Virus record (IMG/VR): IMGVR_UViG_3300015263_000627
Origin: a virus
DNA: 64,000 nucleotides
Direction: 5' to 3' (one strand)
The position numbers were made by a program, and so were the translations under genes. Below the pieces are notes generated by a model. That model searched no databases, was not told the origin of the DNA, and was given only the letters and a program-made list of their open reading frames with translations. The first letter of the stretch is position 1. Each line of letters opens with the position of its first letter. Below, piece after piece: positions 2,495 to 23,485 of this stretch.

Positions 2495-2506
2495 AATAAC
2501 CAAGAT

Positions 2507-3262: not shown

Positions 3263-3293
3263 AAATAGTTCCTCAGTTTATAATATATTTATC

Positions 3294-3322: not shown

Positions 3323-3350
3323 TTATCCATACTTAGAAAAGAGAGGAATA

Positions 3351-3961: not shown

Positions 3962-4136
3962 GCAATAAACGCCAAAAATATGCTAATCCCCCCGATTCGG
4001 TAACAATGGTGTTCCGCCCCCGAGGAAAATCTCTCAAAAAAGGTTCTCAAAATCGTCGCGTTATTGCGATTGGTTTGGACGAAAAACGCGAATATTTTTT
4101 ACATTCAACCAAAGGCTACCGTAATAGGAGAAAATA

Positions 4137-4607: not shown

Positions 4608-4615
4608 GGAGAAAA

Positions 4616-5968: not shown

Positions 5969-6012
5969 TGGATTTACGTTACATATCGGAACTAAAAAAG
6001 GAATGAAACCAA

Positions 6013-6501
6013 ATGAACCAAAAATCAGTACAAAAATTCGTCAAAAGAGAGAAGAACTTCAAACAGAACTTAAAACCCTCAATAGTAAAGGGAAAAAATA
6101 TAGCTGATGGAAGTGGTTTAAGATATAATACTGGTAAAAATAAACTTGAATTAATTCCTTCAGAATGGGAATGGGCGTTGGGTATGATCTTGACCCGAGG
6201 TGCAATAAAATATGATGTAAGAAACTGGGAAAAAGGAATGAGTCATTCTTATGTTCTTGGTTCAGGACGCCGCCATTTAGTCAAGTATTTGGCGGGTGAG
6301 AGATATGATCCTGAAACTGGTTGCCATCATCTGGCAATGGTTGCATGGAACATGTTGGCTCTAATGACCTATGACATTCGGGGTATTGGAGAGGATGATC
6401 TAAAGGATGTTGGGAACTTGGAATGGTTGGAAAAAACAGCCGTCGATCCCGGTCCTGCGTTACAGAAACTAATGGAAGAAAAGAATTTGCAACCTAAATA
6501 A
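6013..6501 (+). CDS. dATP/dGTP diphosphohydrolase domain protein (DUF5664-like); start uncertain
   Basis: GLRYNTGK..LELIP...GAIKYDVRNWEKG...RHL...GE.YDPETG.HHLA..AWN signature. Confidence 0.8.
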   Translation: MNQKSVQKFVKREKNFKQNLKPSIVKGKNIADGSGLRYNTGKNKLELIPSEWEWALGMILTRGAIKYDVRNWEKGMSHSYVLGSGRRHLVKYLAGERYDPETGCHHLAMVAWNMLALMTYDIRGIGEDDLKDVGNLEWLEKTAVDPGPALQKLMEEKNLQPK

Positions 6502-6705
6502 ATGCTAAATTTGGAAAAAACAATAGTTATAATTGTTGTGGGATTTATGCTTTCGAATTGTACCATATCAAAAGATTACTCATTGAGTTTGAGTATTCCA
6601 AGCATTCCTCATGATGAAATAGTTCATCCAGATGCATTAGTCTCATTGGATAGTTCGCCAGATTTTTCAGGTTTACAAGTAACAATTACTAGGACATTTC
6701 CATGA
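6502..6705 (+). CDS. Hypothetical small exported/lipoprotein
   Basis: Hydrophobic N-terminus ending in Cys; coupled to its neighbours. Confidence 0.45.
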   Translation: MLNLEKTIVIIVVGFMLSNCTISKDYSLSLSIPSIPHDEIVHPDALVSLDSSPDFSGLQVTITRTFP

Positions 6706-7265
6706 AAAAGATTATAATTTTTTTCTTATTGGGTCTGATTCTTGGAAGCTGTGCAGCTACACCCGAAGAAAGACAATTAGTGCGTCAAACTGCGGGTGAA
6801 AGTACAACCTTCCAATTACAAGGTACTGATGTAGCTTTAAATCGTTTGCATCCAATATTTGCAAAACGGTTGTCGTCTGCAATCAAGGAAGCTCGAAAAC
6901 AAGGATTGAATGTTGGATGTTTTTCAGCATATCGTCCCCCGGGATTCAATATCGGGAAATATATAGACAAATATAATTCCCTTCATGCCTATGGTTTGGC
7001 TTGTGATGTATATGGTTTGGGGGGTCCAGATGATATAAGGGCATTTGTATGGTATCATATTGCCAAGAGACATAATCTTTGGAATCCTTACTATGGAACC
7101 AAATCATGGGCATGGGAATATAACCATTATCAGATGTATAAGAATATAAAGAAAATTCCCGCCAAATATAAACTTCGGGAAACTATCAAAGATGAAGGTC
7201 CTAAAAATATAGTCGATATGTGGCACGAAGGAACTGTGTTATTCTTTACTCAAATCTTTCATTGA
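6702..7265 (+). CDS. Peptidase M15-like cell wall hydrolase with lipoprotein signal
   Basis: Lipobox LILGSC; SAYR...SLHAYGLACD...EYNH zinc-binding pattern. Confidence 0.75.
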   Translation: MKKIIIFFLLGLILGSCAATPEERQLVRQTAGESTTFQLQGTDVALNRLHPIFAKRLSSAIKEARKQGLNVGCFSAYRPPGFNIGKYIDKYNSLHAYGLACDVYGLGGPDDIRAFVWYHIAKRHNLWNPYYGTKSWAWEYNHYQMYKNIKKIPAKYKLRETIKDEGPKNIVDMWHEGTVLFFTQIFH

Positions 7266-7274
7266 GGATATATT

Positions 7275-7550
7275 ATGGTTGTAACTAAAAATCCTGAAAA
7301 ATTTACCTTAGATCAGGTTGTTTTCGATGTTCGTGAAGAATTAGAACGGGCTACATCAATTCATGGTCCGTTCTATTCTCCCCATGAAGGATATGCCGTC
7401 TTATTAGAGGAAGTCGATGAATTATGGGACGAAATTAAAAAAGGAAAGGGTCGTTCTTTATCTTATAAGGGAATGACCGAAGCAATTCAAGTAGCAGCAA
7501 TGGCAATGCGTTTAGCAATGGACTTATATTATGCCAAACCCAAGGAATAA
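7275..7550 (+). CDS. MazG-like NTP pyrophosphohydrolase-fold protein
   Basis: HEGYAVLLEEVDELWDEI...EAIQVAAMA helical EExxE pattern. Confidence 0.6.
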   Translation: MVVTKNPEKFTLDQVVFDVREELERATSIHGPFYSPHEGYAVLLEEVDELWDEIKKGKGRSLSYKGMTEAIQVAAMAMRLAMDLYYAKPKE

Positions 7551-7752
7551 ACCTCAAGCCAGAAACCTATTGGATGGAACGGGGGTCACCTATTCCAATC
7601 TTTTACGGTTCCTTGAAAATGCAACCAAAGATTTGGAAACGGAAGGTAAGGAAGATGCTGCCTTTTATTTCGGTCAGTTTCATGATTGGTTGCGAAATCA
7701 CTACCACCCAAGCAAAAGTTTTATTTATGAATCTCGCATTTTGGGGTTATGA
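7531..7752 (+). CDS. Hypothetical protein
   Basis: ORF overlapping the upstream stop. Confidence 0.55.
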   Translation: MPNPRNKPQARNLLDGTGVTYSNLLRFLENATKDLETEGKEDAAFYFGQFHDWLRNHYHPSKSFIYESRILGL

Positions 7753-7883
7753 TGATTTATCCAATCTATAGGAAAATTTGGGAAGAATTTCATAATAAAA
7801 AAATTCCAAATGGTTGGCATATACATCATGGAGTAAAAAGAATATATAAGGAGAAATCAAGTGCCTTGGCCCCGAAAACATAA
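7749..7883 (+). pseudogene. Truncated HNH homing endonuclease remnant
   Basis: Translates MMIYPIYRKIWEEFHNKKIPNGWHIHH, the typical HNH N-terminus, then stops after 44 aa. Confidence 0.65.
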
Positions 7884-7953
7884 ACCCCGAACTGGACGCC
7901 GCAAGATTGGTTCGAAGAAACGTCGCGCCCGTCATAAGAACAAACATAGGTAA
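7861..7953 (+). CDS. 30-aa highly basic peptide MPWPRKHKPRTGRRKIGSKKRRARHKNKHR
   Basis: AAGGAG RBS, GTG start; fills the gap before the next gene. Below the ORF-track length cutoff. Confidence 0.65.
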   Translation: MPWPRKHKPRTGRRKIGSKKRRARHKNKHR

Positions 7954-7955
7954 AA

Positions 7956-8231
7956 ATGCAAAAGATAGTTTTTTATTGTGATCGATGTGGCACTGATATA
8001 ATGCATAATGGTGTCTATGATCTTCAGCTAAATTTACATTATAGTGGTTTGGCTAACGATATAATTTACTTATCCGGAGATTTTTGTGCAGAATGTTATA
8101 ATATTATCAAACAAAAAATCGGTAAGGAATTAGAATTTAACCGTTTTCAAACTTATGAGAATATAAGAAAAATTATGGAATGGGATGTTACACCCAAGCC
8201 GCCCGAAGATCATCATCCGACAGATTCGTAA
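7956..8231 (+). CDS. Hypothetical protein with CxxC pairs
   Basis: CDRC...CAEC, suggesting a zinc finger. Confidence 0.55.
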   Translation: MQKIVFYCDRCGTDIMHNGVYDLQLNLHYSGLANDIIYLSGDFCAECYNIIKQKIGKELEFNRFQTYENIRKIMEWDVTPKPPEDHHPTDS

Positions 8232-8850
8232 CATTTAGATCAAGACCTTTGTTACCCGGACAACGAATACCGGGAACCCAATGAGGTTCAGGACCTACCC
8301 CATCACCAGTATATTGCCATAAGAAGAAATCATCAAACCCATTCGGGAAACGATAACGCGATCCATATTGGGCAAGCCAAAGCTTATGGGATGTGATGTA
8401 ATCCCGATCCACTCGATTTAGATCATCAATTGTTTCTTTCAGCTTATTACCCGAATAGATAATAGCCTTGCGACCCATCTTTTCTTCGATAAGATGCAAG
8501 AAATCGACGGCTTGATGAATGGTCATATCAGACCTGCGATTTTCTTCATAGTCTAAGGCTAAAAGGGTTCGAGGATCAGGTTGAGATGCATCAAGGAATT
8601 TATTGACTTGAGCAACGACATTTTCGGCGGAATTGAAATGATAGGCTCCCCATTCTAATCCAACCGACAAGGCTCCCTCTCTAAATTCATCATACATGGG
8701 GTCTTTATAATTGGTGCCTTGGCTGGCTTTGCAAATTATTCCGACAATGCCATAATCCTTGACTTTTTGCCAATCTTGACGGTCAATTTCTTCATAATGT
8801 GAAATATCGACCACTTTGGGAATGAAATCGGTCATTTTGTTGTTCTCCAT
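8188..8850 (-). CDS. GH25 muramidase (probable endolysin)
   Basis: VDISHYE, KASQG, GAYHF, LDYE, IYSG, LWLAQY, WQYT and LDLN motifs. Late promoter-like ATAAATA upstream. Confidence 0.88.
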   Translation of the reverse strand: MENNKMTDFIPKVVDISHYEEIDRQDWQKVKDYGIVGIICKASQGTNYKDPMYDEFREGALSVGLEWGAYHFNSAENVVAQVNKFLDASQPDPRTLLALDYEENRRSDMTIHQAVDFLHLIEEKMGRKAIIYSGNKLKETIDDLNRVDRDYITSHKLWLAQYGSRYRFPNGFDDFFLWQYTGDGVGPEPHWVPGIRCPGNKGLDLNVTNLSDDDLRAAWV

Positions 8851-8884
8851 TTTCCTAAATACTATTTATTAGGGGAGGGCTTCT

Positions 8885-9097
8885 ATGGCATCTACAACCG
8901 AGGAACGGAAAGCGAAACGTTTGAAACAATTACAAGAAAATGTCGAAGCCCAAATTCTTATGACGGACGGTCCCGAAGATTTGCTGTTATTAGCCACTAT
9001 ATTCCTAGCTACTGCCAAAAACATCTTTTTATCGAATTTTCCCAAAGAACATACCCGCGACGTTTTGCATAAGTATGTGGACGATGTTACAAAATGA
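8885..9097 (+). CDS. Hypothetical protein
   Basis: GGAGG RBS and a 70-aa ORF. Confidence 0.55.
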   Translation: MASTTEERKAKRLKQLQENVEAQILMTDGPEDLLLLATIFLATAKNIFLSNFPKEHTRDVLHKYVDDVTK

Positions 9098-9157
9098 TAA
9101 CCCATTGATTTTCCACGTTTCTTAGTTCTTGACTCTACCCCTTTTATGTGATAAATT
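9098..9157 (+). promoter_or_regulatory. Repeated early promoter unit 1 (IHF-like box plus sigma70 promoter)
   Basis: TAACCCATTGATTTTCCACGTTTCTTAGTTC-TTGACT-N17-TAAATT. Confidence 0.75.
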
Positions 9158-9163
9158 CTTATC

Positions 9164-9433
9164 ATGACTGAAAAATGCAAATACATAGTATTCGAAGATG
9201 ATCTTGGTTTAGAGGTCATTATAGTCTTTCCAAATGTAGTAAAACATTCGGATATCAAAGTAAATGGCAACATAGTGAGTGCTGGTTTTATTACTAGATG
9301 GGAAAATGGACTTAATTATGACTGTGGCTATACTTGCTATGGTAAGTCGATTAGTTTAGGCGTCGAAAGTCGCCCTGAAAAAGATGCAAAAATAGCTAAA
9401 AGACAGCTTGCCACTATGTTGATTAGTGATTGA
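9164..9433 (+). CDS. Hypothetical early protein
   Basis: ORF directly after an early promoter. Confidence 0.6.
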   Translation: MTEKCKYIVFEDDLGLEVIIVFPNVVKHSDIKVNGNIVSAGFITRWENGLNYDCGYTCYGKSISLGVESRPEKDAKIAKRQLATMLISD

Positions 9434-9436
9434 ATT

Positions 9437-9715
9437 ATGAAGAAAACTCTCAAATTTGGCAAATACCCCGCCGATGGTTTTGTTGCCACCCTTGAAGAAT
9501 ATTACAAGGATGGTTTTGAAACTGGTGCCTCTTGGAAAGAGGATTATATTCCGGGGGGTCCGTGGGTTTGCTCCTATGGTTTCATTTTGACGCATGATGC
9601 CGATTGGCAGGCTTATTGCCAGCATACCAAGGATGGCAACGCCGAATGGCTCCGGGGGTTCAAGGCAGGATTAGATTCTCAATCCTCTAACCCATTGAAA
9701 TCTCACGTTTCTTAG
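9437..9715 (+). CDS. Hypothetical early protein
   Basis: ORF track; coupled to the upstream gene. Confidence 0.6.
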   Translation: MKKTLKFGKYPADGFVATLEEYYKDGFETGASWKEDYIPGGPWVCSYGFILTHDADWQAYCQHTKDGNAEWLRGFKAGLDSQSSNPLKSHVS

Positions 9716-9747
9716 TTCTTGACATCATAAGAACATTCTGCTATGAT
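9688..9747 (+). promoter_or_regulatory. Repeated early promoter unit 2
   Basis: TAACCCATTGAAATCTCACGTTTCTTAGTTC-TTGACA-N17-TATGAT. Confidence 0.75.
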
Positions 9748-9897
9748 TAGCTTATATGTGACGGTGTTACTCCACCTCCCTTGCCCCGGGGGTCGAAGCG
9801 TGGTAGCCGAGAGGGAAAAGAGGGCTAACCGGAAAAAAGTCCTATTTCCGGGGATGGCAGGGGGGACGCAGCCCATTCAAAAGGCTAGGCAAACTTC

Positions 9898-9957
9898 TAA
9901 CCCATTGATTTTCCACGTTTCTTAGTTCTTGACATAGACAAAATCTTGTGCTAGGAT
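9898..9957 (+). promoter_or_regulatory. Repeated early promoter unit 3
   Basis: TAACCCATTGATTTTCCACGTTTCTTAGTTC-TTGACA-N17-TAGGAT. Confidence 0.75.
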
Positions 9958-9962
9958 TAGTT

Positions 9963-10181
9963 ATGATGACAAAAAGCAAGATCAATACCGCAAGGCTCCG
10001 GAACAAGGAACCTTCGACGTATCAGAAAATGCGAGCTATTGTCCGTAAATGGGATGATTTAATACATTTTATGCATTATGATTATCGCCAAGTTGATACA
10101 ATTGACCTAAACAGTCACGCTCGTATTCGTATGTCCAAAACAGCCGAAGGTCACACACTCTTAGAGATTTTGGAAAGCTAA
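9963..10181 (+). CDS. Hypothetical early protein
   Basis: ORF directly after promoter unit 3. Confidence 0.55.
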   Translation: MMTKSKINTARLRNKEPSTYQKMRAIVRKWDDLIHFMHYDYRQVDTIDLNSHARIRMSKTAEGHTLLEILES

Positions 10182-10182
10182 C

Positions 10183-10377
10183 ATGACAAAACGTCAAGGA
10201 TATTACCGCTTTTATAATGCAGGTAAATTCAATGGTCGCGGTGAGGATCATATTATGTTTTGTTTTTATGGTCCTGATAAAACTCCCGGGCAATGTCAAC
10301 TTGTTCCGGCTTCACATGCTGCCGCAGAACTTGCAGCAATAAAGGCAAACCGAGATTATTTACCATTAACGGAATAA
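10183..10377 (+). CDS. Hypothetical early protein
   Basis: ORF track; tightly packed. Confidence 0.5.
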   Translation: MTKRQGYYRFYNAGKFNGRGEDHIMFCFYGPDKTPGQCQLVPASHAAAELAAIKANRDYLPLTE

Positions 10378-10384
10378 TTCACAT

Positions 10385-10696
10385 ATGACAAAAACAGACC
10401 TAATTCGACAAGATGCGCTTGATCACGCCCGTAATGGCGAGTCGATGCGAAATTATGCTCTCATTATTGAGGGCTTCATGGACAAGGGAATCGCGGAAGA
10501 TGACATTCTTCCGCGTGAGAATGTGTTCACCTATAATGCATGGATGGCACAAGGTCGCCGCGTCAAGCGGGGCGAGCATGGTGTGAAGATCACCACGTTT
10601 ATCCCGAAAAAGGATAAAAAGACCGGCGAGAAAAAGGGTGTCCGTCCGTGGATTTCGACAGTGTTCCATGTGACGCAAACGGAGAAGGTAGCGTGA
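10385..10696 (+). CDS. ArdC N-terminal-like ssDNA-binding / antirestriction domain protein
   Basis: FTYNAWMAQGRRVKRGEHGVKI...VFHVTQTE matches the ArdC-N (DUF1738) pattern. Confidence 0.7.
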   Translation: MTKTDLIRQDALDHARNGESMRNYALIIEGFMDKGIAEDDILPRENVFTYNAWMAQGRRVKRGEHGVKITTFIPKKDKKTGEKKGVRPWISTVFHVTQTEKVA

Positions 10697-10962
10697 CAAA
10701 TTTACCGGAACTGTGTTATACGCGCATTCTTGGCGCTGCCCCGGGTCACCGCATGGGCGTGATCAAATGTGATGTATCGGGATATTATCCTTGTGATTAT
10801 GATCAAGCGAAATATTCCGATGAACAAATTGAGGATTGGGTTCGATTGCTGAATGACCGCCTTGGGGTAACCCCGTCGCAACGTTTGGCAATGGAAACTG
10901 GTTCAATGTTTGGTTGGGATGTTCCGGGAGCAAATCCGGATAATTGGAAAGGTCTGAAATGA
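10693..10962 (+). CDS. Conserved MGE-type hypothetical protein
   Basis: LNDRLGVTPSQRLAMETGSMFGWDVPGA motif; GTG overlaps the upstream stop. Confidence 0.6.
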   Translation: MTNLPELCYTRILGAAPGHRMGVIKCDVSGYYPCDYDQAKYSDEQIEDWVRLLNDRLGVTPSQRLAMETGSMFGWDVPGANPDNWKGLK

Positions 10963-11640
10963 CAACGCCTAAGATCAAATGGGTCTGGACAACATCGCGT
11001 AAATTAACCAGTTATGAAAAACGGTTTACCATACTTGAAGATCAGTATGGGGCAAAAGTCGAGTATCATATTACGGATCGTCTGAGTTTTCCGAAAGAAA
11101 AGGAAACGTTCAACGATTTACGCGAGTGTAAAGCATGGGCACAGATGATCGTGGATAGGGATAATTTGATATGAACATACCGAAGGTAAAATGGGTCAAC
11201 CAAAATCCGGGAGCGAGTCCGGATGAAGGTCGTTATTGGGTAAGTTTGGAAGGTCGATTCTCGATTACCCCAAATTTCCGGCATACGATTTACCCGGACT
11301 CTTATACCGTTGTAGATGCTTTACAGCGTCGGGGTCCTGCAATGACTCATGTAACCTTTGATACCATTCGGGATTGTAAGGATTGGGCTAACGATCAGGT
11401 CCGTATAACATTGGAGAATGCACTGTGAAATTTAGTCGTACTTTAAATGATGATGTTATTCGTTTACATAATCTTGAACGAGTATTGGCAGATATGGATT
11501 TTGTAGCGAATGTAAAAAATACTTTTCGAACAGATGCTATAATAGAATCAGTTCGAGAAGAACGAAAATTTGTACAACAATGCTTAGAAGCACAAGTAAA
11601 AGCATTTTACAATGAAGAAACTAAGGATTGGCGATGGTAA
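10959..11640 (+). CDS. Three small coupled hypothetical early ORFs (10959-11174, 11171-11428, 11425-11640)
   Basis: Overlapping stop/start codons. The first two share xPKI/VKW...TF..(L/I)R(E/D)CK.WA, so they are probably paralogues. Confidence 0.55.
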
Positions 11641-11949
11641 AACGGCGAAGCATAATTGCCCGGGATTTAAAAACCCCGAAATATCGTCCACGTATTGTGG
11701 GCAATCGTAAACGGCGAGCTAATAAGCTGGCTTGTCGGGGAAAGGTAACCGATTAAGGAAATGAGACTATGAAGAAAAAATCTATATATCTGCGACATAA
11801 ACCGGTATATCATCCGGATCGTAAACCTTATGTTGTTGACAAGGTGGTAAATAGTATCGAGTACGATCCGGGTCAATTTCTGACAATAGATCAGGTCCAG
11901 AGCCTATGTCGGATGCCGAATTGGACCGTGAACGTAGGGAAAAAATAAA

Positions 11950-12201
11950 ATGCCAGTGAAAGCACAAGAGAATGGACCCTATATTATAATTCCCCGCATT
12001 TCTTATTGGGGTAAGCGGGCAGGTGGTTTCTATAGTCCACTTAGACCCAAAGGTGCGAATTATGAATGGGGTTTGATTGTAAAAATGAAAAAGTGGGGGG
12101 CTGGTTCTCAAAACAACGGTCCTACCGGTAAAAAGAATCGGTGGTATCAAGGTCGTTTTGGACATAGACCAAAACCCGCAAAGAAAACAAGTTCTACATG
12201 A
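11950..12201 (+). CDS. Basic hypothetical protein
   Basis: RBS and an 83-aa Lys/Arg/Gly-rich ORF. Confidence 0.5.
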   Translation: MPVKAQENGPYIIIPRISYWGKRAGGFYSPLRPKGANYEWGLIVKMKKWGAGSQNNGPTGKKNRWYQGRFGHRPKPAKKTSST

Positions 12202-12268
12202 TCCTCATTATTCTAATCGGCACTCTTGCCCTTGGAATAATGATCGATAGGGCAATAGAGAGGCGAAG

Positions 12269-12660
12269 ATGGCGGTATATCCGGAATGGACGGAAGAATT
12301 TACCAATGACCTAAAGCAGATGGTTGTTGGGGATCGTACCCATGTTGTGGTCGAAGCCTTGGCTCCGTTTGACCCGGATGCCCCGGTTGGTTTGGTCATG
12401 GAATGGGATGAAACGCGAGTTATTATCCGGGTGGATGGTAATCAGTGGCAGTTTAGACAAAAGGAAAATGTGTCATGAATGAGACAGTGAACGAGATTGT
12501 GGAAATTCGTCCGGTTTATAAAAAGAAACACGTTTATAAAGACGGTTCGCCGGGGTTCAATCGGGGATTAGCGGAGGTTACCTTGACTCATATCAAGAAA
12601 GAAATCGCCGCTAATTCCAAAAATAGGCGCAAGTATCGAGAGGATAATTTGATAGCCTAA
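12269..12660 (+). CDS. Two small hypothetical ORFs (12269-12478, 12475-12660)
   Basis: ORF track; overlapping stop/start. Confidence 0.5.
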
Positions 12661-12669
12661 AAAAAAGTG

Positions 12670-12698
12670 CTTGACACGATAAAAAAAGTATGATAGGG
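12670..12698 (+). promoter_or_regulatory. Sigma70-type promoter ahead of a non-coding structured region
   Basis: TTGACA-N17-TAGGGT. Confidence 0.55.
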
Positions 12699-12987
12699 TA
12701 AATATTACAGTAAGGAAAGTTGCGATTTTCCTGTTCACTCGAACAAGGGAGAAGCCAATGACCTAGCGGTTAAAAACCGCAATTTTGACGCAGAAAGCAT
12801 GTGAATGCAGGAATATTGGGGTTTAATTCCCCTACCGGTCAAAATAGGAACAAAGAAAAGTCTGTTAAAATTATAATTTTTATAGAGATAAATATAGAGT
12901 ACCCAGTACCGGTTTGCTGGTTCCGGATAAAAAAATCAGCATAAACATAAAGTTAAGAAAAAAGTGAGATAAATAGAAAAAAGGGCT

Positions 12988-13016
12988 TGACACGACTAAA
13001 TAGGTGTGATATAGTC
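12988..13016 (+). promoter_or_regulatory. Sigma70-type promoter
   Basis: TTGACA-N17-TATAGT. Confidence 0.75.
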
Positions 13017-13069
13017 TCTTTCGTAACTGGAAATAGGAACAATGAACACAGGTTGTAAACATAGCAGAA

Positions 13070-13260
13070 TATCACTCACGCAATTGCGTGATCGTGGCAT
13101 TGCGCCATGTTTAGAATCTTGGTATAAGCCCTTCGGGCAAAATACCGAGTAAAATCCAGCAAGGTCCGCCTTGCTGGTTATCCGGCGAGGCTAAAAACGG
13201 ACCAAATCCGTAAAAATCTCGCCAGATAAGTTATACGCAGATTACAATTTGCGTATAATG
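13070..13260 (+). ncRNA. Unassigned multi-hairpin RNA
   Basis: Six consecutive hairpins, including GCCC-TTCG-GGC, CCAGCAAGG-TCCG-CCTTGCTGG and TATACGCA/TGCGTATA. Confidence 0.5.
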
Positions 13261-13271
13261 CATTTTTTCGC

Positions 13272-13300
13272 TTGACATACAGGCGAGAGAATGTTATGAT
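13272..13300 (+). promoter_or_regulatory. Sigma70-type promoter at the head of the tRNA array
   Basis: TTGACA-N17-TATGAT. Confidence 0.75.
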
Positions 13301-13319
13301 GATAGGTTACGGGGTAAGT

Positions 13320-13430
13320 ATAGCCCAACCGCTGGTAGTACGATGGCGATAACTTTGCCATCCGGTAGGATTAGACGATGATCCTATTGTCCTTACGGGG
13401 TAAGTAAGGGGTGGTTTCGCTAGGGGTTAT
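13320..13430 (+). ncRNA. Unassigned four-way-junction RNA
   Basis: ATAGCCC-AACCGC pairs with GTGGTT...GGGGTTAT and encloses three hairpins. Confidence 0.55.
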
Positions 13431-13474
13431 TTTCATCATGGATAAATCTTTATCCAAGGATTGAAAGAGTTTAT

Positions 13475-13600
13475 GGGGATGTAGCTTAAGGTGGTAAAGC
13501 ATCTCAACATTTATTCTTCTAATGATATCGTAGAAGAACCGTCAGATATCGGGCGGTTGTTTAGAAAGATGAGGGTTCGACTCCCTCCATTCTCTGCCCA
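13475..13600 (+). ncRNA. tRNA-like RNA with a bifurcated anticodon arm
   Basis: Acceptor GGGGATG/CATTCTC, D-arm GCTT/AAGC and T-arm GAGGG-TTCGACT-CCCTC. The anticodon arm is replaced by two hairpins. Confidence 0.65.
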
Positions 13601-13657
13601 TAGAGAAAGAACGAGGCGTCAGCACACGCCTACAATTCAATTCTTAGATAAAGATTT

Positions 13658-13732
13658 GCCACCGAAACATTGGTAGTGATGTACCGGTTTCGTAAACTGG
13701 AAAACCAAGTCCGACTCTTGGCGGTGGCTCCA
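13658..13732 (+). tRNA. tRNA-Thr(CGU)
   Basis: Cloverleaf; anticodon loop TTCGTAA; CCA encoded; T-loop TCCGACT. Confidence 0.85.
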
Positions 13733-13733
13733 T

Positions 13734-13808
13734 GCCTCTTAAGCATATGTGGTGATGCAGCCGCCTTGTAAGCGGCAGAATCAGATTCGATTTCTGAAAG
13801 AGGCTCCA
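13734..13808 (+). tRNA. tRNA-Thr(UGU)
   Basis: Loop CTTGTAA; CCA. Confidence 0.9.
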
Positions 13809-13814
13809 ATTCAT

Positions 13815-13889
13815 GCTCCCTTCTTCTATCAGCTAGGAACCCCGGCTTTCAACCGGGAAAAACCGGGGCAGCACCGGTAGGGAGTGCCA
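13815..13889 (+). tRNA. tRNA-Glu(UUC), non-canonical T-loop GGCAGCA
   Basis: Loop CTTTCAA; CCA. Confidence 0.85.
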
Positions 13890-13894
13890 ATAAC

Positions 13895-13968
13895 GTCGCA
13901 ATAGGCTAGTGGCAGACCATATCCTTGGTACGGATAGAACCATGGTTCGATTCCATGTTGCGGCACCA
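13895..13968 (+). tRNA. tRNA-Thr(GGU)
   Basis: Loop TTGGTAC; CCA. Confidence 0.8.
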
Positions 13969-14061
13969 ATTCAAGAAAATATAAACATTGGTTGCAGCCA
14001 ATGTTTCTTATCAGTTGCCTTTTACCTTGACCTAACTCTGCAAAGTTTTTGAGGTAAACTG

Positions 14062-14136
14062 TTTCATATCGTCTAACGGAGAGGACACCGCCCTTTTGCG
14101 GCGGGAATATGGGTTCGAGTCCCATTGTGATCTGCA
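14062..14136 (+). pseudogene. Degenerate tRNA: Glu-type body with UUU anticodon, broken acceptor end, no CCA
   Basis: GGACACCGCC-CTTTTGC-GGCGG; the top two acceptor pairs are mismatched. Confidence 0.6.
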
Positions 14137-14261
14137 ATTGATCGGTTTCAAATTAGGAGTTCCTGTAGCTATTACGTGGAACGAAATGCGGGCAGTTATA
14201 GCTTCCCCGGCTCCTAAAATGCGCTGGACCCGACGCGGTAAAATATCGGGAACAAATTTAT

Positions 14262-14344
14262 GGGCAACTGGCATATGGAAACTGGTACACCTAACGGTTT
14301 TAGAAACCGCGCTTTTGAGAGTTCGAGTCTCTCGTTGCCTACCA
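14262..14344 (+). tRNA. tRNA-Leu(UAG)
   Basis: Loop TTTAGAA; long variable region; CCA. Confidence 0.85.
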
Positions 14345-14348
14345 ATAC

Positions 14349-14433
14349 GTGGCTGTGGGATAAGTTGAAATAGGAACACACAGCGGGCTTAAAATCCGTT
14401 CCTTTGCGAGTTCGAGTCTCGCCAGCCACACCA
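14349..14433 (+). tRNA. tRNA-Leu(UAA)
   Basis: Loop CTTAAAA; CCA. Confidence 0.88.
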
Positions 14434-14438
14434 ATAAT

Positions 14439-14523
14439 GTCGTTGTGGGCTAATTCGAAATAGGCACACGTTACTGCCTCAAAAGCAGCGCCTTTGCGGG
14501 TTCGAATCCCGCCAACGACACCA
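14439..14523 (+). tRNA. tRNA-Leu(CAA)
   Basis: Loop CTCAAAA; CCA. Confidence 0.88.
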
Positions 14524-14527
14524 ATAA

Positions 14528-14601
14528 GGCTCATTAGTTTAAAAGTAGAACGTTGCTTTTACACGGCAATTGAAGCGGGGCAGTACCGTTATGAGCTACC
14601 A
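14528..14601 (+). tRNA. tRNA-Val(UAC), T-loop GGCAGTA
   Basis: Loop TTTACAC; CCA. Confidence 0.85.
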
Positions 14602-14610
14602 ATTAAGTGC

Positions 14611-14662
14611 TTGACATGCTCTCAAGAGCATGTTATAGTGCTTAGTATGCTCGCAAGAGCAT
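14611..14662 (+). promoter_or_regulatory. Sigma70 promoter of the GOLLD-like RNA, with palindromes in the spacer and near +1
   Basis: TTGACA-N17-TATAGT. ACATGCTCT-CA-AGAGCATGT spans the spacer, and ATGCTC-GCAA-GAGCAT lies at 14647-14662. Confidence 0.75.
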
Positions 14663-15570
14663 TATAAAACACAAGTAAACTTTATAACTTTGGCGGTTTA
14701 GCGTCGTCAGGATAGCTTGGAGTGATCCAAGTTAAAGCTGTGTATCCTATTAAACAGCGCCCGCAAGGGTCCATCTAAACAAGCCTAGTCGTCCCCGCGA
14801 GGGGCTATCAGGGATGATGGTAGTATATATGACGACAAGGTGTGGTCCGAAAGGATAGGGGTAAGCCTCTGCGAAAGCAAGCCCAACCTAATATCCCGCA
14901 AGGATAGCCACACATGCAAACTTGTCTAGTAGGTATCGACAATAGGTAGTTACAGTAATCCGATGCTTCGCGGCAAAGGGTGGGTAGCATGATCTTCGGG
15001 AGAACGGACCCCGCTATTCGGAGGGGAGACGTATATCCTAGAGTCAGGTTGAGTAACTCGCAAGGTGAAAAACAGTTGGTGTGTTGTATTTTGTTTCCCA
15101 AAAGGAAGCGAAGCAACCGAACCAGCACATCAAAATAGGTTTAGAAAAAATGATCCATGGCGGATCATCTGCATATGAAGCAGAAAGGATTGGTTCGATT
15201 CCAATTTTTTTCACCAGAGAAAACGCAAAGTCTGGTTCGATGTTGATTGAGAAATGGTCTAAACCAATGGCGGCTTGCCGTAACATTGGCGATGAAGCCC
15301 CGCAAGGGTGAAGTTGTTATTTGATCGAATTATCCTAATGGGTTAGCGCCCATGAATAGCTCGCAAGGCTAAGGGTGAGATGATCGGTGAGTAGATCAAC
15401 ATGACAAGTGAAACGCTACACTTCAAAAAAAGCGACCTTGTTACACTACATGCCGAAACGGTATGTGGATGAAAGGGAACCCTTATAGTGCGCTAGTCGC
15501 CGCACCCGAGCAGGGTGGGGGATAATCCTAGAAGGTGTAACGCTAAACCCTGTAGTCTCAAGGGTCTAAA
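14646..15570 (+). ncRNA. GOLLD-like giant ornate RNA (about 900 nt); ends approximate
   Basis: Many GNRA-capped helices (CCGCAAGG, CTCGCAAGG). The blocks GGTGTGTTGTATT...CAAAAGG...CAGCACATC, CCTAATGGGTTAGCGCCC and CTGTAGTCTCA resemble GOLLD from memory. No credible ORF; sits inside a phage tRNA array. Confidence 0.72.
15144..15216 (+). tRNA. tRNA-like element embedded in GOLLD, anticodon AUG (His-type), acceptor GAAAAAA/UUUUUUC
   Basis: D-arm GATCC/GGATC; TCTGC-ATATGAA-GCAGA; ATTGG-TTCGATT-CCAAT; A73-CCA. Confidence 0.7.
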
Positions 15571-15610
15571 ATATTCTCCAAGCACATTACAATGTGTTTC
15601 GACAATATAA

Positions 15611-15685
15611 GCGTCTTTAATTCATTGGCAGAATGCTTGTTCGACACGCAAGATGTAGAAAGTTCGATTCTTTCAAGACGCACCA
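15611..15685 (+). tRNA. tRNA-Val(GAC), C33
   Basis: Loop TCGACAC; CCA. Confidence 0.8.
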
Positions 15686-15725
15686 TTTCGATAAATATAT
15701 GTAGTTCCATTGTAGGAGAACATAT

Positions 15726-15890
15726 ATGTTAGAAGGATTAATCGGATTTGCTATCGGGGCAATTGTTATTGGTGTTATTGCCAATCGCCGCCCTCAATGG
15801 TTTGCATCTATTGTAACCATGGCAAATAAAATCGATGATAAAGTCAACGCTGGTGTTACCAGTATAGTTGAAAAAGTTCAAAACAAATAA
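15726..15890 (+). CDS. 54-aa small membrane protein
   Basis: AGGAG RBS; MLEGLIGFAIGAIVIGVIANRRP (N-terminal transmembrane helix). Confidence 0.65.
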   Translation: MLEGLIGFAIGAIVIGVIANRRPQWFASIVTMANKIDDKVNAGVTSIVEKVQNK

Positions 15891-15964
15891 TGTAGTGACC
15901 GCAGAAGCGACGAGAGCGCCCGATAAGCGTTTGCAAGAAGGGGCAGTACCTTCCACTACAACCA
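15891..15964 (+). tRNA. tRNA-Ile(GAU), T-loop GGCAGTA, aberrant D-arm
   Basis: Loop CCGATAA; CCA. Confidence 0.75.
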
Positions 15965-15968
15965 ATAT

Positions 15969-16045
15969 GGACCCGTGACCGGAACTGGCTACGGCGCGGA
16001 CTTTTAATCCGTTTTATGAGAGTTCGAGTCTCTCCGGGTCTGCCA
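15969..16045 (+). tRNA. tRNA-Lys(UUU)
   Basis: Loop CTTTTAA; CCA. Confidence 0.88.
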
Positions 16046-16089
16046 ATATAAGGAGAGCATATTATGATAAAAAGAAAGGACAGCATATT

Positions 16090-16368
16090 ATGATAAAAAG
16101 AACAAGAATTCTCACTCAGAGATATCAGTTTGATGACTGGCCTTCAAATAAATCATTCGAAGCAATTGAGTATGATGCATCAGGCCAATTGTTTTGGATT
16201 GCATACGACGAAAGTCCTATTCAAGTAATCTTTGAACAGCGATCAGCAGAATGTTGTTTTCCAATCGATATTAATATGGCAGAACATATATTCGAAACGT
16301 TTGGAAGAAAACTTGATCGATCAAAATTACCAAAAGAAGTTTTACATAGTAAAATGTGTATAAGTTAA
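16090..16368 (+). CDS. Hypothetical protein inside the tRNA array
   Basis: 92-aa ORF preceded by a 21-bp tandem duplication of its start region. Confidence 0.6.
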   Translation: MIKRTRILTQRYQFDDWPSNKSFEAIEYDASGQLFWIAYDESPIQVIFEQRSAECCFPIDINMAEHIFETFGRKLDRSKLPKEVLHSKMCIS

Positions 16369-16369
16369 T

Positions 16370-16444
16370 ACACGCATGGCTTGATGGGGAAGCAATGGAC
16401 TCTTAATCCATGAAATGCGAGTTCGAATCTCGCTGCGTGTACCA
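16370..16444 (+). tRNA. tRNA-Lys(CUU)
   Basis: Loop CTCTTAA; CCA. Confidence 0.9.
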
Positions 16445-16452
16445 TTTCAAAG

Positions 16453-16536
16453 TTTCGGTGCATTGATGTGCGTATCTTGCAAGATCACATTTGATGAAAT
16501 CGTGTAAGGGTAGTCGCGTAACCTCACCGAAAGCCA
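16453..16536 (+). ncRNA. D-armless tRNA-like RNA with CCA end
   Basis: TTTCGGTG/CACCGAAA stem plus G-CCA; long helix capped by TCTTGCAAGA. Confidence 0.45.
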
Positions 16537-16541
16537 TTTAT

Positions 16542-16613
16542 AGGGGAGTAGCTTAAGATAAAAGCGGGACTTCATGAATCCAGTTGGTAGTTCATATCTA
16601 TCCTCCCCTGCCA
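16542..16613 (+). tRNA. Atypical tRNA, probable CAU anticodon, imperfect anticodon stem
   Basis: AGGGGAG/CTCCCCT G-CCA; GGAC-TTCATGA-ATCC. Confidence 0.55.
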
Positions 16614-16620
16614 ACATTAT

Positions 16621-16694
16621 ATCAGCGAGCGCATGGGCGTGGTCCGAACTCCAAATCCGGAAACCCGCAGGTTCGACTCCTGCCGCTGGTGCCA
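16621..16694 (+). tRNA. tRNA-Trp(CCA)
   Basis: Loop CTCCAAA; G73-CCA. Confidence 0.82.
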
Positions 16695-16700
16695 TTTCAA

Positions 16701-16775
16701 GGTGCTTTGGTGAATCAGCTATCATTTCTGTCTGTCGAACAGATGTAACGGGGGCAGCACCCGTAAGCACCGCCA
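16701..16775 (+). tRNA. tRNA-Asp(GUC), T-loop GGCAGCA
   Basis: Loop CTGTCGA; G73-CCA. Confidence 0.85.
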
Positions 16776-16787
16776 ATTCAAATTCAA

Positions 16788-16862
16788 GGCTCATGACGCT
16801 GCTGGTGTGGCGATCCGGTTGTCAACCGGCTGAGAGGGGTTCGAATCCCCTATGAGTCGCCA
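16788..16862 (+). tRNA. tRNA-Asp(GUC), second copy
   Basis: Loop TTGTCAA; G73-CCA. Confidence 0.88.
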
Positions 16863-16866
16863 ATAA

Positions 16867-16943
16867 CAGGGTATGGGAAAGTCTAGTAATCCGCTACTTT
16901 CGGAAAGTAGAGAGCGTTGGAGCGAAGCCAACTGCCCTGACCA
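16867..16943 (+). tRNA. tRNA-Pro(CGG), T-loop AGCGAAG
   Basis: Loop TTCGGAA; C1-G72 and A73. Confidence 0.82.
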
Positions 16944-16947
16944 ATAC

Positions 16948-17035
16948 GCGCCATGGTGTAAGACACGGGAGAGACTTATAAACTCTTTAGCATCAGATGG
17001 GTGTTCTTGACTTGGGGCAGTACCAAGATGGCGCA
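16948..17035 (+). tRNA. tRNA-Ile(UAU) with long variable arm, T-loop GGCAGTA, no encoded CCA
   Basis: GCGCCAT/ATGGCGC; AGAG-A-CTTATAA-A-CTCT. Confidence 0.7.
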
Positions 17036-17097
17036 CATAGACTCCAAATTATGATAAATAGATGTAATAATCTGTCCTCTAACTTGGAGTATAAATA

Positions 17098-17688
17098 ATG
17101 TATTACACCATTTACAAAATAACCAATAAAACCAACAACAAATATTATATAGGCAAACATCAAACCAATAACATTGATGATGGTTATATGGGTTCCGGTA
17201 AATTATTACGCCGCGCTATCAATAAACATGGAATAAACAATTTTGTTAAGGAAATTCTCCATATATTTGATAATGAACAGGATATGAATAATAAGGAAAA
17301 AGAACTTGTTGTTATTGGAGAACAATCATACAACTTATGTGATGGTGGTAAAGGTGGGTTTGGATATATAAACAAACTTCCAAATCAATCTTGGCGTATT
17401 AAAACTGGAAAAATTACTTCGCAAAAATTAAAAAATAAATCGGGGAATGATCATTGGAAAAATATATCCAGATTATCTCATGAAAAATATTCGAATTTAG
17501 GATTTCGTAGTTATTCAAAAAAACAACAAAATAAATGGAAATTATTAGGCAGTAAAAACGCACAAACACCAGAAGCTAAAGAAAAAAGAGCAAATACATG
17601 GAAAATAAAAATACAGAATGGTTGGAAACCCCACAATTGGAAGATGAAGAATGTGAAGTCTGTCGTTATACAGGTCAGAAACCCATAA
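17098..17688 (+). CDS. GIY-YIG homing endonuclease (SegB-like) in the tRNA array
   Basis: YTIYKITN...YYIGKH...YMGSG...YNLCDGGKGG. Late promoter-like GATAAATA at 17053-17060. Confidence 0.88.
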   Translation: MYYTIYKITNKTNNKYYIGKHQTNNIDDGYMGSGKLLRRAINKHGINNFVKEILHIFDNEQDMNNKEKELVVIGEQSYNLCDGGKGGFGYINKLPNQSWRIKTGKITSQKLKNKSGNDHWKNISRLSHEKYSNLGFRSYSKKQQNKWKLLGSKNAQTPEAKEKRANTWKIKIQNGWKPHNWKMKNVKSVVIQVRNP

Positions 17689-17763
17689 AACTGAAAAGAC
17701 AATGGGTCCATTACTTTCCCTTAAAGGGAAGGATTGTGGTATGTAGATCAAAAAGGTATAATC

Positions 17764-18129
17764 ATGAAAGCAATCTTTAGGTATGATGAATTTTCACACC
17801 CACCGCGAATGATGATCAACATTCATGGTGCGCCTCATGAAAGGCAGCATCGTGAAGTTCTTCAAAAGTATCGCGATGATTTGACTGATGCTTTCAAAAG
17901 ACAGTTGCCGAATGTTACAATTCCTATTGACCATCCGGTTGACTTGGAAGTGTTTTTCACTAATCCGGCAAGTCCTGATTTGAACCATGTATTGACGGCA
18001 TTGTTCGCCGCAATGGATGCAAAGTCATTGAAGGGTCCGTCTATTTTGACTGATGATCGCCATATTCAAAAGGTGGTTATGTCGAAATATTATATCGGTA
18101 AGCCAACAAAAAGGGATAGTGTCCGATGA
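17764..18129 (+). CDS. RusA-like fold protein with degenerate catalytic motif
   Basis: PDLNHVLTALFAAMD...LTDDRHI resembles RusA PDxDNxxK...DD, but with substitutions. Confidence 0.5.
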   Translation: MKAIFRYDEFSHPPRMMINIHGAPHERQHREVLQKYRDDLTDAFKRQLPNVTIPIDHPVDLEVFFTNPASPDLNHVLTALFAAMDAKSLKGPSILTDDRHIQKVVMSKYYIGKPTKRDSVR

Positions 18130-18392
18130 CGATTTGCCGAGTATGTACGGGTAGCGGTTCATTTTTTGCCGTTCAACCTCATAATATGACGAAGAAAAAG
18201 GTTTACAAGTGGTTTCCCTGTCCGTCCTGTAATGGACTTGGAACCATTGATGTGGATAGTCCTGCCAAGATTGTAATGCATCCTTTTCCCAAGGGCATTT
18301 CTAATAGGCTAAAAAGAAATCTACAAAAATTAAGGGAAGGTAGCGGGGAAGGTCCCCAAGCGGTCTTGAAAACCGCGCCACCGCAAGGTTGA
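18126..18392 (+). CDS. Small DnaJ-type zinc-finger protein; 3' end overlaps tRNA-Ser
   Basis: CRVCTGSG...CPSCNGLG. Confidence 0.55.
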   Translation: MTICRVCTGSGSFFAVQPHNMTKKKVYKWFPCPSCNGLGTIDVDSPAKIVMHPFPKGISNRLKRNLQKLREGSGEGPQAVLKTAPPQG

Positions 18393-18418
18393 TAGTTCAA
18401 TTCTATTGCCTTCCGCCA
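18335..18418 (+). tRNA. tRNA-Ser(UGA)
   Basis: Loop CTTGAAA; long variable arm; G73-CCA. Confidence 0.88.
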
Positions 18419-18422
18419 ATAT

Positions 18423-18509
18423 GGAAAATTAAATAGCCGGGGAGCTATCCACGCTTGGAAAGCGTGAGGCACTTAAATGTGTGTGGATCAAGACCACAGT
18501 TTTCCGCCA
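18423..18509 (+). tRNA. tRNA-Ser(GGA), T-loop ATCAAGA
   Basis: Loop TTGGAAA; long variable arm; G73-CCA. Confidence 0.85.
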
Positions 18510-18593
18510 ATAACATATCACGCATACCCCAGTCGGGTCGTGTCCGTCAAGGTATTCGCTCACAACGTCAAGGCGGTGATATGTTTCATTTAT

Positions 18594-18681
18594 GGAAAGA
18601 TAACCCATAAGGATATGGGGTGCGCCTCGAAAGCGTAACGATGATTCAGTCATTGGGGATCAAGACCTCATCTTTCCGCCA
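18594..18681 (+). tRNA. tRNA-Ser(CGA), T-loop ATCAAGA
   Basis: Loop CTCGAAA; long variable arm; G73-CCA. Confidence 0.82.
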
Positions 18682-18685
18682 TTAG

Positions 18686-18778
18686 TCTATTGGGATTTCG
18701 CGCAAAAAAACCTGATAGGTGCGACACCTGCCTTGCGAGTGGTGTGACTTTGGGGAGAGTCCTGAGCCAATAGGTCCA
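18686..18778 (+). ncRNA. Aberrant tRNA-like RNA with CCA (possible UGC loop)
   Basis: TCTATTGG/CCAATAGG T-CCA; enlarged D and anticodon arms. Confidence 0.4.
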
Positions 18779-18918
18779 GTTCGATATAGAACATACACAA
18801 TATGTTTCTAATTCTATGTTCTGGCGAAAGTGTTTTGCAAACAGCCTAAATAAAATATCAGCACAAACACGGATGTAATGGAGTGCTAGTCGAGAGTTAG
18901 TAGCTTGACAAAGTTTAT

Positions 18919-18995
18919 AGCAGGTAGGACAAGGTAGATAAGTCGCCACTCTCATAAAGTGGAGAAAGTCGGGGCAGAGCCGACACCTGCAACCA
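18919..18995 (+). tRNA. tRNA-Met(CAU), initiator-like 1:72 mismatch, T-loop GGCAGAG
   Basis: Loop CTCATAA; A1-A72 mismatch; CCA. Confidence 0.8.
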
Positions 18996-19082
18996 ATAAT
19001 CTGGTACTGATCATACGTCACCTAAAGACATAGGACCGATCAGCTAAGAGAAAGTATGCGATACTGCCGGATTTTTAATAAT

Positions 19083-19171
19083 GAGTAGGTATCAAGCTCG
19101 ACGGCAAGGAGCAAGCGGTCTGTAAAACCGATCCCATATGGGCGGGGGTTCGACTCCTCACCTACTCACCA
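19083..19171 (+). tRNA. tRNA-Tyr(GUA)
   Basis: Loop CTGTAAA; long variable arm; CCA. Confidence 0.88.
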
Positions 19172-19175
19172 TTAC

Positions 19176-19249
19176 GCGGGCGAAGGATTACGGCAGTCTT
19201 AGGCGTTGCCAACGCTTCGGCGTGGGTTCGACTCCCACCGTCCGCACCA
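19176..19249 (+). tRNA. tRNA-Gly(GCC)
   Basis: Loop TTGCCAA; CCA. Confidence 0.85.
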
Positions 19250-19254
19250 ATAAA

Positions 19255-19330
19255 GCCTTTTGAGCAAGTATGGTTATTGCACCTGTCTGAAGAACAGTGG
19301 AACTCCGTTCGATTCGGGGAAAAGGCACCA
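19255..19330 (+). tRNA. tRNA-Phe(GAA)
   Basis: Loop CTGAAGA; CCA. Confidence 0.85.
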
Positions 19331-19405
19331 TTAGATAGGATACCGGTATCCTCCATGTAGATATGGTGGCAGTTAAGGCTGTCGAGTAAAGCCGGGGCTA
19401 TAATT

Positions 19406-19483
19406 GGGGTGCGGGATTGCATAGGGTGATCGCCTGCCTTGCAAGCAGGAATCAGCGGGGGGCAGTACCCCGGCACTCCACCA
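19406..19483 (+). tRNA. tRNA-Ala(UGC), G3-U70, T-loop GGCAGTA
   Basis: Loop CTTGCAA; A73-CCA. Confidence 0.88.
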
Positions 19484-19490
19484 ATTTTAT

Positions 19491-19565
19491 TCTATCGTAC
19501 TCAACTGGTAAGAGAAGTGGCTGTTAACCACCGATATGTAGGTTCGAATCCTACCGATAGAGCCA
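19491..19565 (+). tRNA. tRNA-Asn(GUU)
   Basis: Loop CTGTTAA; G73-CCA. Confidence 0.9.
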
Positions 19566-19569
19566 ATAT

Positions 19570-19644
19570 GCTGCTTTCGTCTAACGATCAGGACACCGCC
19601 CTCTCAAGGCGGAAACGTGGGGTGAGTACCCGCAAGCAGCGCCA
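19570..19644 (+). tRNA. tRNA-Glu(CUC), T-loop GTGAGTA
   Basis: Loop CTCTCAA; CCA. Confidence 0.87.
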
Positions 19645-19647
19645 ATT

Positions 19648-19975
19648 TCGGAAGCGTAGATGATCGCGCTACGGTGAGGAAAGTCGGGTCTGCTAATACA
19701 ACCGTAATGGGTAACGCCCATCCACAGTAATGTGAGGATTAGAGCTACAGGGACGATCCTATTAAGTTAGGGATGAAACGAGCAATCTCTACGGGCAGCA
19801 ATCTCAAGTTCTCCGAAGGGTATGTATTCCCATCACTTAAATGTGTGTTAGGTAATGGTAGAGAGCAAAGACCTAAATGGAAACGTTTGGGCAAGTCAAA
19901 TGATCGTCATATATTGATTATAATACGACCATTTCTATAATCAATATGAACAGAAACCCGCTTATTCGCTTCCGA
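19648..19975 (+). ncRNA. rnpB: RNase P RNA (phage-encoded, compact, lacking P13/P14)
   Basis: P1 TCGGAAGCG/CGCTTCCGA. CR-I GAGGAAAGTC and CR-V AACAGAAACCCGCTTA form P4 with a bulged U. P9 TGGGTAACGCCCA, GATGAAACG, GCAGCAA, L15 GGT, GNRA-capped P18 and P19 are present. Confidence 0.9.
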
Positions 19976-20068
19976 GAAATACTTACCGGGATAAATACCA
20001 TGTATATCCCGGCATGGCTCGTCCGGGATTTTTTATTTTAGAGCCATAATAATAAAGAGGTAAAATAC

Positions 20069-23408: not shown

Positions 23409-23485
23409 GCTGGCTATGCTCGATGGCAATGAGCGGCGTGTCTGTGAAACACGAATATTCGGTTCGAATCCGATAGCCAGTACCA
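23409..23485 (+). tRNA. tRNA-His(GUG), alphaproteobacterial type (no G-1, G1-U72, A73)
   Basis: GCTGGCT/AGCCAGT-A-CCA, preceded by A; loop CTGTGAA. Confidence 0.85.

Follow-up and report, generated by a model that had tools for sequence, protein, structure and literature searches.

A GOLLD RNA with a CCA-ended tRNA-like element in its linker, encoded by a large uncultured phage

To our knowledge the function of GOLLD RNA has been unknown since 2009, and the cage structures of 2025 left the contents of the cage open. Cage assembly is known for the env-38 (14-mer) and Streptococcus agalactiae (12-mer) GOLLD RNAs only (PMC12286853; PMC12990946), and in the cryo-EM structure of env-38 the 14-mer forms a closed cage with an unresolved linker directed toward the interior (PMC12286853). 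In some cases the linker of GOLLD contains tRNAs (PMC12286853), and a role for them as cargo in the cage is a published hypothesis (PMC12286853; PMC12990946). In Mycolicibacterium the linker holds a tRNA-Phe, for which a 2026 review proposed "inhibited storage" (PMC12990946), and the inner pseudo-tRNA of M. aubagnense produced no Northern signal of its own (PMC6582537). The GOLLD family, its phage setting and the embedding of a tRNA are all already published, and the locus described here leaves that picture unchanged.

We analysed a 64,000 nt stretch of viral DNA (hereafter the window) in which an initial annotation had proposed a GOLLD-like giant ncRNA at 14646-15570 and had named ROOL as the alternative. 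Comparison with the Rfam models using cmscan bore out the GOLLD assignment: RF02032 matched 15074-15564 on the + strand with 180.1 bits, where the gathering score is 150 (E 5e-49), and the alignment was complete, covering model positions 1-416 of 416 with the pseudoknot included (15239-15248 with 15394-15403, 9 of 10 pairs). No ROOL match in the window reached the gathering score of that model. ROOL resembles GOLLD as a large, phage-associated, cage-forming RNA found near tRNA islands and with an interior linker, but its sequence and fold are unrelated. RF02032 covers the conserved 3′ half of GOLLD only, and the 5′ half was assessed by a separate alignment. Relatives were collected with a DNA pattern representing the first 3′-domain hairpin, which returned 85 viral contigs; all 15 of those sampled were GOLLD according to cmscan, at 177-226 bits. 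The 440 nt upstream of this hairpin in 22 other GOLLD loci aligned with window positions 14631-15073, with conservation beginning near 14683. For the resulting 5′ domain of approximately 390 nt RNAalifold predicted 88 pairs, 72 of which exhibited a compensatory double change in at least one sequence. The conserved RNA thus totals 882 nt (14683-15564), and the start given in the initial annotation lies close to the predicted transcription start rather than at the first conserved position.

The region between 14646 and 15570 has a folding energy of -309 kcal/mol (z = -6.2 versus shuffles). Its earlier description as a series of GNRA-capped helices without a credible open reading frame was accurate, as many hairpins are capped by GCAA, GAAA or GCGA and the open reading frames, none longer than 106 aa, overlie covarying helices. 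That the region is ROOL or a chance run of hairpins is refuted by the full-length RF02032 match with its intact pseudoknot, the lack of a ROOL match at gathering score and a 5′ domain that is both homologous to GOLLD and covarying, and we consider this next to impossible. We are confident that the locus encodes a genuine GOLLD RNA, in a phage that is large and uncultured. It shares with the env-38 and S. agalactiae RNAs a conserved 3′ domain with pseudoknot, a variable 5′ domain, a length of about 880 nt, a location in a phage tRNA island and a linker between the first 3′-domain hairpin and the pseudoknot strand. The linker of env-38 is 42 nt long and disordered (PMC12286853), whereas that of the window contains a complete cloverleaf with CCA. 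Identity to other GOLLD members is 60-80% and is confined to short patches. We also noted that the loop of the first 5′-domain hairpin (14695-14704) is a perfect 10-nt complement of the joiner that precedes the last 3′ hairpin (15540-15549), and that loop and joiner co-vary in several relatives (UUUAG/CUAA, AUAG/CUAU and CUUAG/CUAAG), which hints at a tertiary pairing between the 5′ and 3′ domains. Coordinates of the features are given in Table 1.

Table 1. Features of the GOLLD locus and the ordinary tRNA-His gene of the phage, in window coordinates.
Feature	Position	Strand	Basis or remark
Sigma-70-like promoter: TTGACA, 17 nt, TG, TATAGT	14611..14639	+	Predicted; 11/12 matches, TG before -10; predicted start near 14646
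5′ leader hairpin, GCAA loop	14647..14662	+	Stem with exact twin in promoter spacer 14616-14631
GOLLD 5′ domain (variable "cap" domain)	14683..15073	+	Alignment with 22 other GOLLD loci, compensatory changes
First hairpin of conserved 3′ domain	15074..15135	+	Rfam model positions 1-62; P14 in published numbering
UAGGUU motif just 5′ of linker insert	15136..15141	+	Present in nearly all of 88 loci
Embedded tRNA-like element	15144..15216	+	ARAGORN; Rfam tRNA 44.8 bits
Remaining GOLLD 3′ domain with pseudoknot and terminal hairpin 15548-15564	15217..15564	+	RF02032 alignment
Short trailer, up to tRNA-Val (15611-15685)	15565..15610	+	No terminator-like site
Ordinary tRNA-His (GTG)	23409-23485		No G-1, G1-U72, A73, 9-nt D loop

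The initial annotation had assigned the RNA its own promoter, and a matching sigma-70-type site is predicted upstream (Table 1) that probably drives an RNA of about 900 nt. Near-consensus promoter sites number nine in the window, all on the + strand, compared with 0.94 expected by chance. A 6-bp inverted repeat, ATGCTC .. GAGCAT, occurs twice here, once in the promoter spacer (14616-14631) and once from about +2 of the transcript (14647-14662); no further exact copies are present elsewhere in the window, and the hairpin formed by the second copy is not conserved among the relatives in the 22-locus 5′ alignment. The paired repeats could represent an operator pair or a stabilising 5′ hairpin. 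At the other end, no terminator-like site was found on the + strand between the GOLLD RNA and the tRNA-Val gene at 15611, and co-transcription of GOLLD with the downstream tRNAs is possible on this arrangement.

In the window, genes for 24 tRNAs are accompanied by those for an RNase P RNA and a tmRNA, in agreement with the phage tRNA island and nearby phage ribozyme described previously. The RNase P RNA is of bacterial class A (139 bits) and is located at 19648-19979, inside the tRNA island and 4 kb downstream of GOLLD; the tmRNA is a permuted alpha-type molecule (70 bits) at 50909-51271. One protein of the window is also on record on a 181-kb contig. The types of the tmRNA and of the tRNA-His, and these features only, point to an alphaproteobacterial host (Rhizobiales, Caulobacterales or Rhodobacterales-like). 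Just upstream of the GOLLD promoter, at 14250-14598, is a row of odd tRNA-like units, including an 85-nt "tRNA-Gly" called by ARAGORN at 14439-14523 with its anticodon at position 38, and an Rfam tRNA call at 14528-14598 that has no ARAGORN counterpart.

Close relatives of the locus were not found in phage records, viral contigs or a metagenome scan. Megablast of window positions 1-20000 against phage records gave no match, sensitive blastn gave only patches of 73-94 nt in three phages, a metagenome scan for the flanks of the window's linker gave no match, and the best relatives of this GOLLD among viral contigs were at most 80% identical, in patches. The hairpin motif of the subfamily had four hits in about 185,000 species genomes (L091-L094) compared with the 85 viral contigs. 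Given this near absence from species genomes of a motif that is common in viral contigs, the subfamily appears to belong to lytic or unintegrated phages rather than to prophages. Inference of the host from prophages was rejected, as three of the four genome hits were contigs of metagenome-assembled genomes with differing labels. A search with a neighbouring phosphoesterase gave two further loci (L089 and L090), and GOLLD was absent from L089. That viral contig, which is unrelated to the window, carries a c-di-GMP-I riboswitch aptamer at 4607-4692 (69 bits).

The embedded element was called as a tRNA with anticodon atg (AUG) by ARAGORN and scored 44.8 bits against a threshold of 29 with the Rfam tRNA model (RF00005), and every detail of the cloverleaf given in the initial annotation was confirmed by the two methods. 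It occupies the unstructured linker of RF02032 (model positions about 63-128) between the first 3′-domain hairpin and the pseudoknot strand. The acceptor stem comprises 7 bp (GAAAAAA/UUUUUUC, that is, one G-C and six A-U pairs) and is followed by A73 and CCA; the D arm has a 4-bp stem and GG in its loop, the anticodon loop is AUAUGAA with U33 and A37 present, and the T arm is standard with the loop UUCGAUU. According to the model alignment U8 is kept and position 9 is deleted, leaving a one-nucleotide 8/9 connector in place of the two nucleotides that are the norm in tRNAs. The score is low beside the 54-66 bits of other inserts with the Rfam tRNA model, and the minimum-energy fold of the isolated 73 nt lacks the acceptor stem, and hence the cloverleaf, because this stem is weak. 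By blastn the 73 nt gave generic T-arm matches only. Since no close GOLLD relatives were found in these collections, no relative of this particular insert was available for covariation analysis.

The same linker site is occupied in several described GOLLD RNAs, namely by the tRNA-Phe of Mycolicibacterium, the pseudo-tRNA of M. aubagnense and, as we found, by a UCU tRNA or tRNA-like element in Sinorhizobium phage Phosso and in roseophages MD18 and DSS3_MAL1. These inserts differ in anticodon from that of the window (Phe in Mycolicibacterium and UCU in the three phages, as opposed to AUG). The inserts of MD18, DSS3_MAL1 and Phosso also have mismatched acceptor tops and no CCA, in contrast to the fully paired A-U acceptor, A73 and CCA of the window. 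We estimate from base-pairing odds that a full acceptor with A73 and CCA would be expected by chance in about 0.04 of 53 inserts, and because the combination of 7/7 pairs, A73 and CCA is so improbable, the 3′ end of the element looks like that of a live or recently live tRNA.

To place this element among its counterparts we compared 88 related GOLLD loci, which with the window gave 89 sequences. ARAGORN called a tRNA 7-13 nt downstream of the hairpin in 64 of the 89 (the window included), or at least 72% of the subfamily, and several further loci contained a tRNA-like insert with a degenerate T loop. Unrelated short inserts replace the tRNA shape in some relatives, and, judged by the Rfam consensus, no part of GOLLD is less conserved than the linker. 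When 53 distinct inserts were aligned, the paired fraction was 97.6% for the D stem, 99.2% for the anticodon stem and 98.9% for the T stem, with a covariation score of 0.81, where shuffles scored 0.22 and slid controls about 0.1. The acceptor end was different: pairs 1, 2 and 3 were open in 21, 33 and 21 of the 53 distinct inserts, respectively, mean acceptor pairing was 5.3/7 versus 6.6/7 in free-standing tRNAs (Mann-Whitney p = 3e-38), and CCA followed only 3 of 63 inserts compared with 654 of 689 free-standing tRNAs from the same loci. It is in its full acceptor stem and CCA that the insert of the window is unusual.

The anticodon of the inserts was found to be replaced freely. Among pairs with bodies at least 85% identical, which are not phylogenetically independent, it differed in 24 of the 39 pairs of inserts, as compared with 5 of the 358 pairs of free-standing tRNAs. 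Relative to the body, the anticodon loop changes 2-8 times faster in inserts, whereas it changes several times slower in ordinary tRNAs, and at least nine separate anticodon changes are needed within scaffold clusters of inserts. The shape of the loop is nevertheless kept, 21 of 23 loop types having U33 together with a purine at 37, as are the T loop and G18-G19. Comparison of the insert anticodon with the free-standing tRNA set of each partial genome gave 11 duplications against 13.3 expected (pooled Fisher p = 0.39). Across the subfamily the insert therefore behaves, as far as can be read from sequence comparison, as a tRNA body under selection, in which the anticodon loop has the canonical shape, the aminoacylation end is missing and the anticodon can be interchanged. 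We did not find this pattern (body kept, acceptor end lost, anticodon free) stated in the literature covered, to which Morgado et al. 2020 does not belong. Some inserts have an anticodon loop of 8 nt (AUUGAUAA) or an anticodon that corresponds to a stop codon (CUA, UCA), as seen in L019, L064, L081, L083 and L085, at 6491-6565 of L009 and at 5319-5390 of L050.

Exchange of the insert was also evident in public sequencing runs. At least part of the stretch is contained in 17 public runs, which include DNA runs from sediment and soil as well as metatranscriptomic libraries; those compared consisted of contigs, from which transcript ends and levels are not readable, and the RNA-library contigs could partly derive from DNA. 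Parts of 14795-15543 are represented by RNA-library contigs from two studies, for which a DNA origin is possible; some of these contigs have high depth and come from relatives of about 95% identity. Two RNA libraries, from a study other than that of the window-identical contig described below, yielded contigs of 673 and 628 nt that align with 14887-15141 and 15220-15543 at about 95% and have 69 other letters in place of 15142-15219, a replacement known by its length only. The replaced segment is precisely the stretch bounded by the conserved UAGGUU motif and the A-rich run ahead of the pseudoknot strand, and the linker of this relative would by its length be about 84 nt, within the 83-87 nt usual for tRNA-bearing linkers. 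In a soil DNA variant that differs by approximately 1% the insert is unchanged. Because the relative of about 95% identity has the whole insert replaced, the linker insert is, on the contig sequences, a cassette exchanged between close relatives. Contig gaps were considered as transcript limits and rejected, as the runs were chosen for GOLLD words and the contigs show no ends; in runs so chosen, the RNA libraries lack contigs over the tRNA genes and ORFs on either side (13600-14794 and 15620-15922), where a DNA run has them. For the same reasons an RNA-library contig that stops at 15543 and runs on into Illumina adapter sequence was not taken to mark a transcript limit.

The initial annotation had proposed that the AUG anticodon would read histidine codons. 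CAU, which would pair perfectly with this anticodon, accounts for 210 of the 251 His codons of the phage (84%; the remaining codons number 41). The ordinary tRNA-His of the phage (Table 1) is of the rare G-1-less type known from alphaproteobacteria, for which HisRS reads the anticodon and U72, and with that type of HisRS the changes G34A and U72C each cost 91-fold (PMC3064791). In comparison with the G-1-less tRNA-His of Caulobacter crescentus, the insert likewise has no G-1 and shares A73, U35 and G36, but it has A34 in place of G34, C72 (in a G1-C72 pair) in place of U72, and a shorter D region; A73, U35 and G36 are thus its only matches to the identity set. The G-1/C73 pair of standard bacterial tRNA-His is absent as well, position -1 being A (15143) and the discriminator A. 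As A34 and C72 are both present and each implies a loss of about 91-fold with the HisRS type concerned, efficient histidylation and histidine decoding by the element, as put forward in the earlier reading, are unlikely under known identity rules. Of the 970 tRNA calls from all loci only 2 have anticodon AUG, and both are GOLLD inserts. In view of the free replacement of insert anticodons, the AUG of the window would be one of many variants and no designed reader of histidine codons. The second such call (L039, 4956-5026) belongs to a GOLLD insert whose scaffold is found elsewhere with CUU, UAG or UAU.

We think it somewhat more probable than not that the insert serves the GOLLD chain as a tRNA-shaped module, tethered and exchangeable, instead of acting as a histidine-decoding tRNA. 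A sigma-70-type promoter would give rise to an RNA of about 900 nt with a variable 5′ domain and a conserved 3′ domain, and by homology with the solved GOLLD structures we infer that this RNA self-assembles into a closed homo-oligomeric cage. The insert, lying in the variable linker, would point into the interior and would remain tethered to the chain. Inserts of the subfamily would keep the tRNA body and the shape of the anticodon loop while the aminoacylation end is generally lost and the anticodon is freely replaced; the copy in the window would be a rare variant with a full acceptor stem and CCA, for which some release by RNase P is conceivable. RNase P needs an acceptor of 7 bp, A73 and CCA, which the insert of the window has and most of its relatives lack.

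A working tRNA gene nested in GOLLD is the most probable of the alternatives, although we regard it as unlikely. Here the RNase P of host or phage would cut at 15143/15144 and 3′ processing would expose the CCA, GOLLD would be divided into two parts, perhaps still capable of assembly, and the freed tRNA would read CAU by Watson-Crick pairing through an unmodified A34. The complete acceptor end, of the kind found in 16 of 17 parsed free-standing tRNAs of the phage, together with the phage RNase P RNA downstream, keeps excision alive, and U8, the GG of the D loop, the UUCGAUU T loop, U33, A37 and the prevalence of CAU among His codons fit as well. A34 is moreover found in free-standing phage tRNAs of related loci, with anticodons AGU, AGA, AUA and AAA. 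The element is nevertheless a poor histidine tRNA for the identity reasons above, its AUG anticodon is seen in no call other than GOLLD inserts, it lacks nucleotide 9, its A-U acceptor does not form in the minimum-energy fold, its score falls below those of other inserts, and relatives with an insert at the same site have no usable acceptor end. An RNA-library contig identical to the window over 15037-15210 is also uncut across the 5′ border of the insert, with the reservation that such contigs may come from DNA.

The low conservation of the linker, the unrelated short inserts in some relatives, and the ease with which the insert is swapped whole and its anticodon and acceptor top vary would all suit a remnant without function, left by a piece of a tRNA gene that entered a tolerant linker through recombination and is now in decay. 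Decay would not, however, spare the stems, the loops and the conserved site: the three stems are 98-99% paired by way of many compensatory changes, the T loop and G18-G19 persist, as do U33 and the purine at 37, and a tRNA shape stands at the same place in most of the subfamily. We consider a remnant quite improbable on these grounds. The comparative pattern also suggests, as speculation, that the inserts are no spare tRNAs but anticodon-diversifying displays within the cage, which would serve as baits or decoys for host factors reading anticodon loops, such as the anticodon nucleases of phage defence, or synthetases, with the anticodon replaced under selection and the body and loop geometry kept. 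This reading is rather improbable; were it true, the AUG loop of the window would be one such variant, still with a releasable end. A complete, CCA-ended insert in a phage that encodes its own RNase P RNA makes this locus well suited for asking if a linker tRNA is shielded by the cage against processing or is set free from it. The comparison of 88 loci, which provides testable constraints on the function of GOLLD inserts, is a more interesting product of this work than the locus itself.
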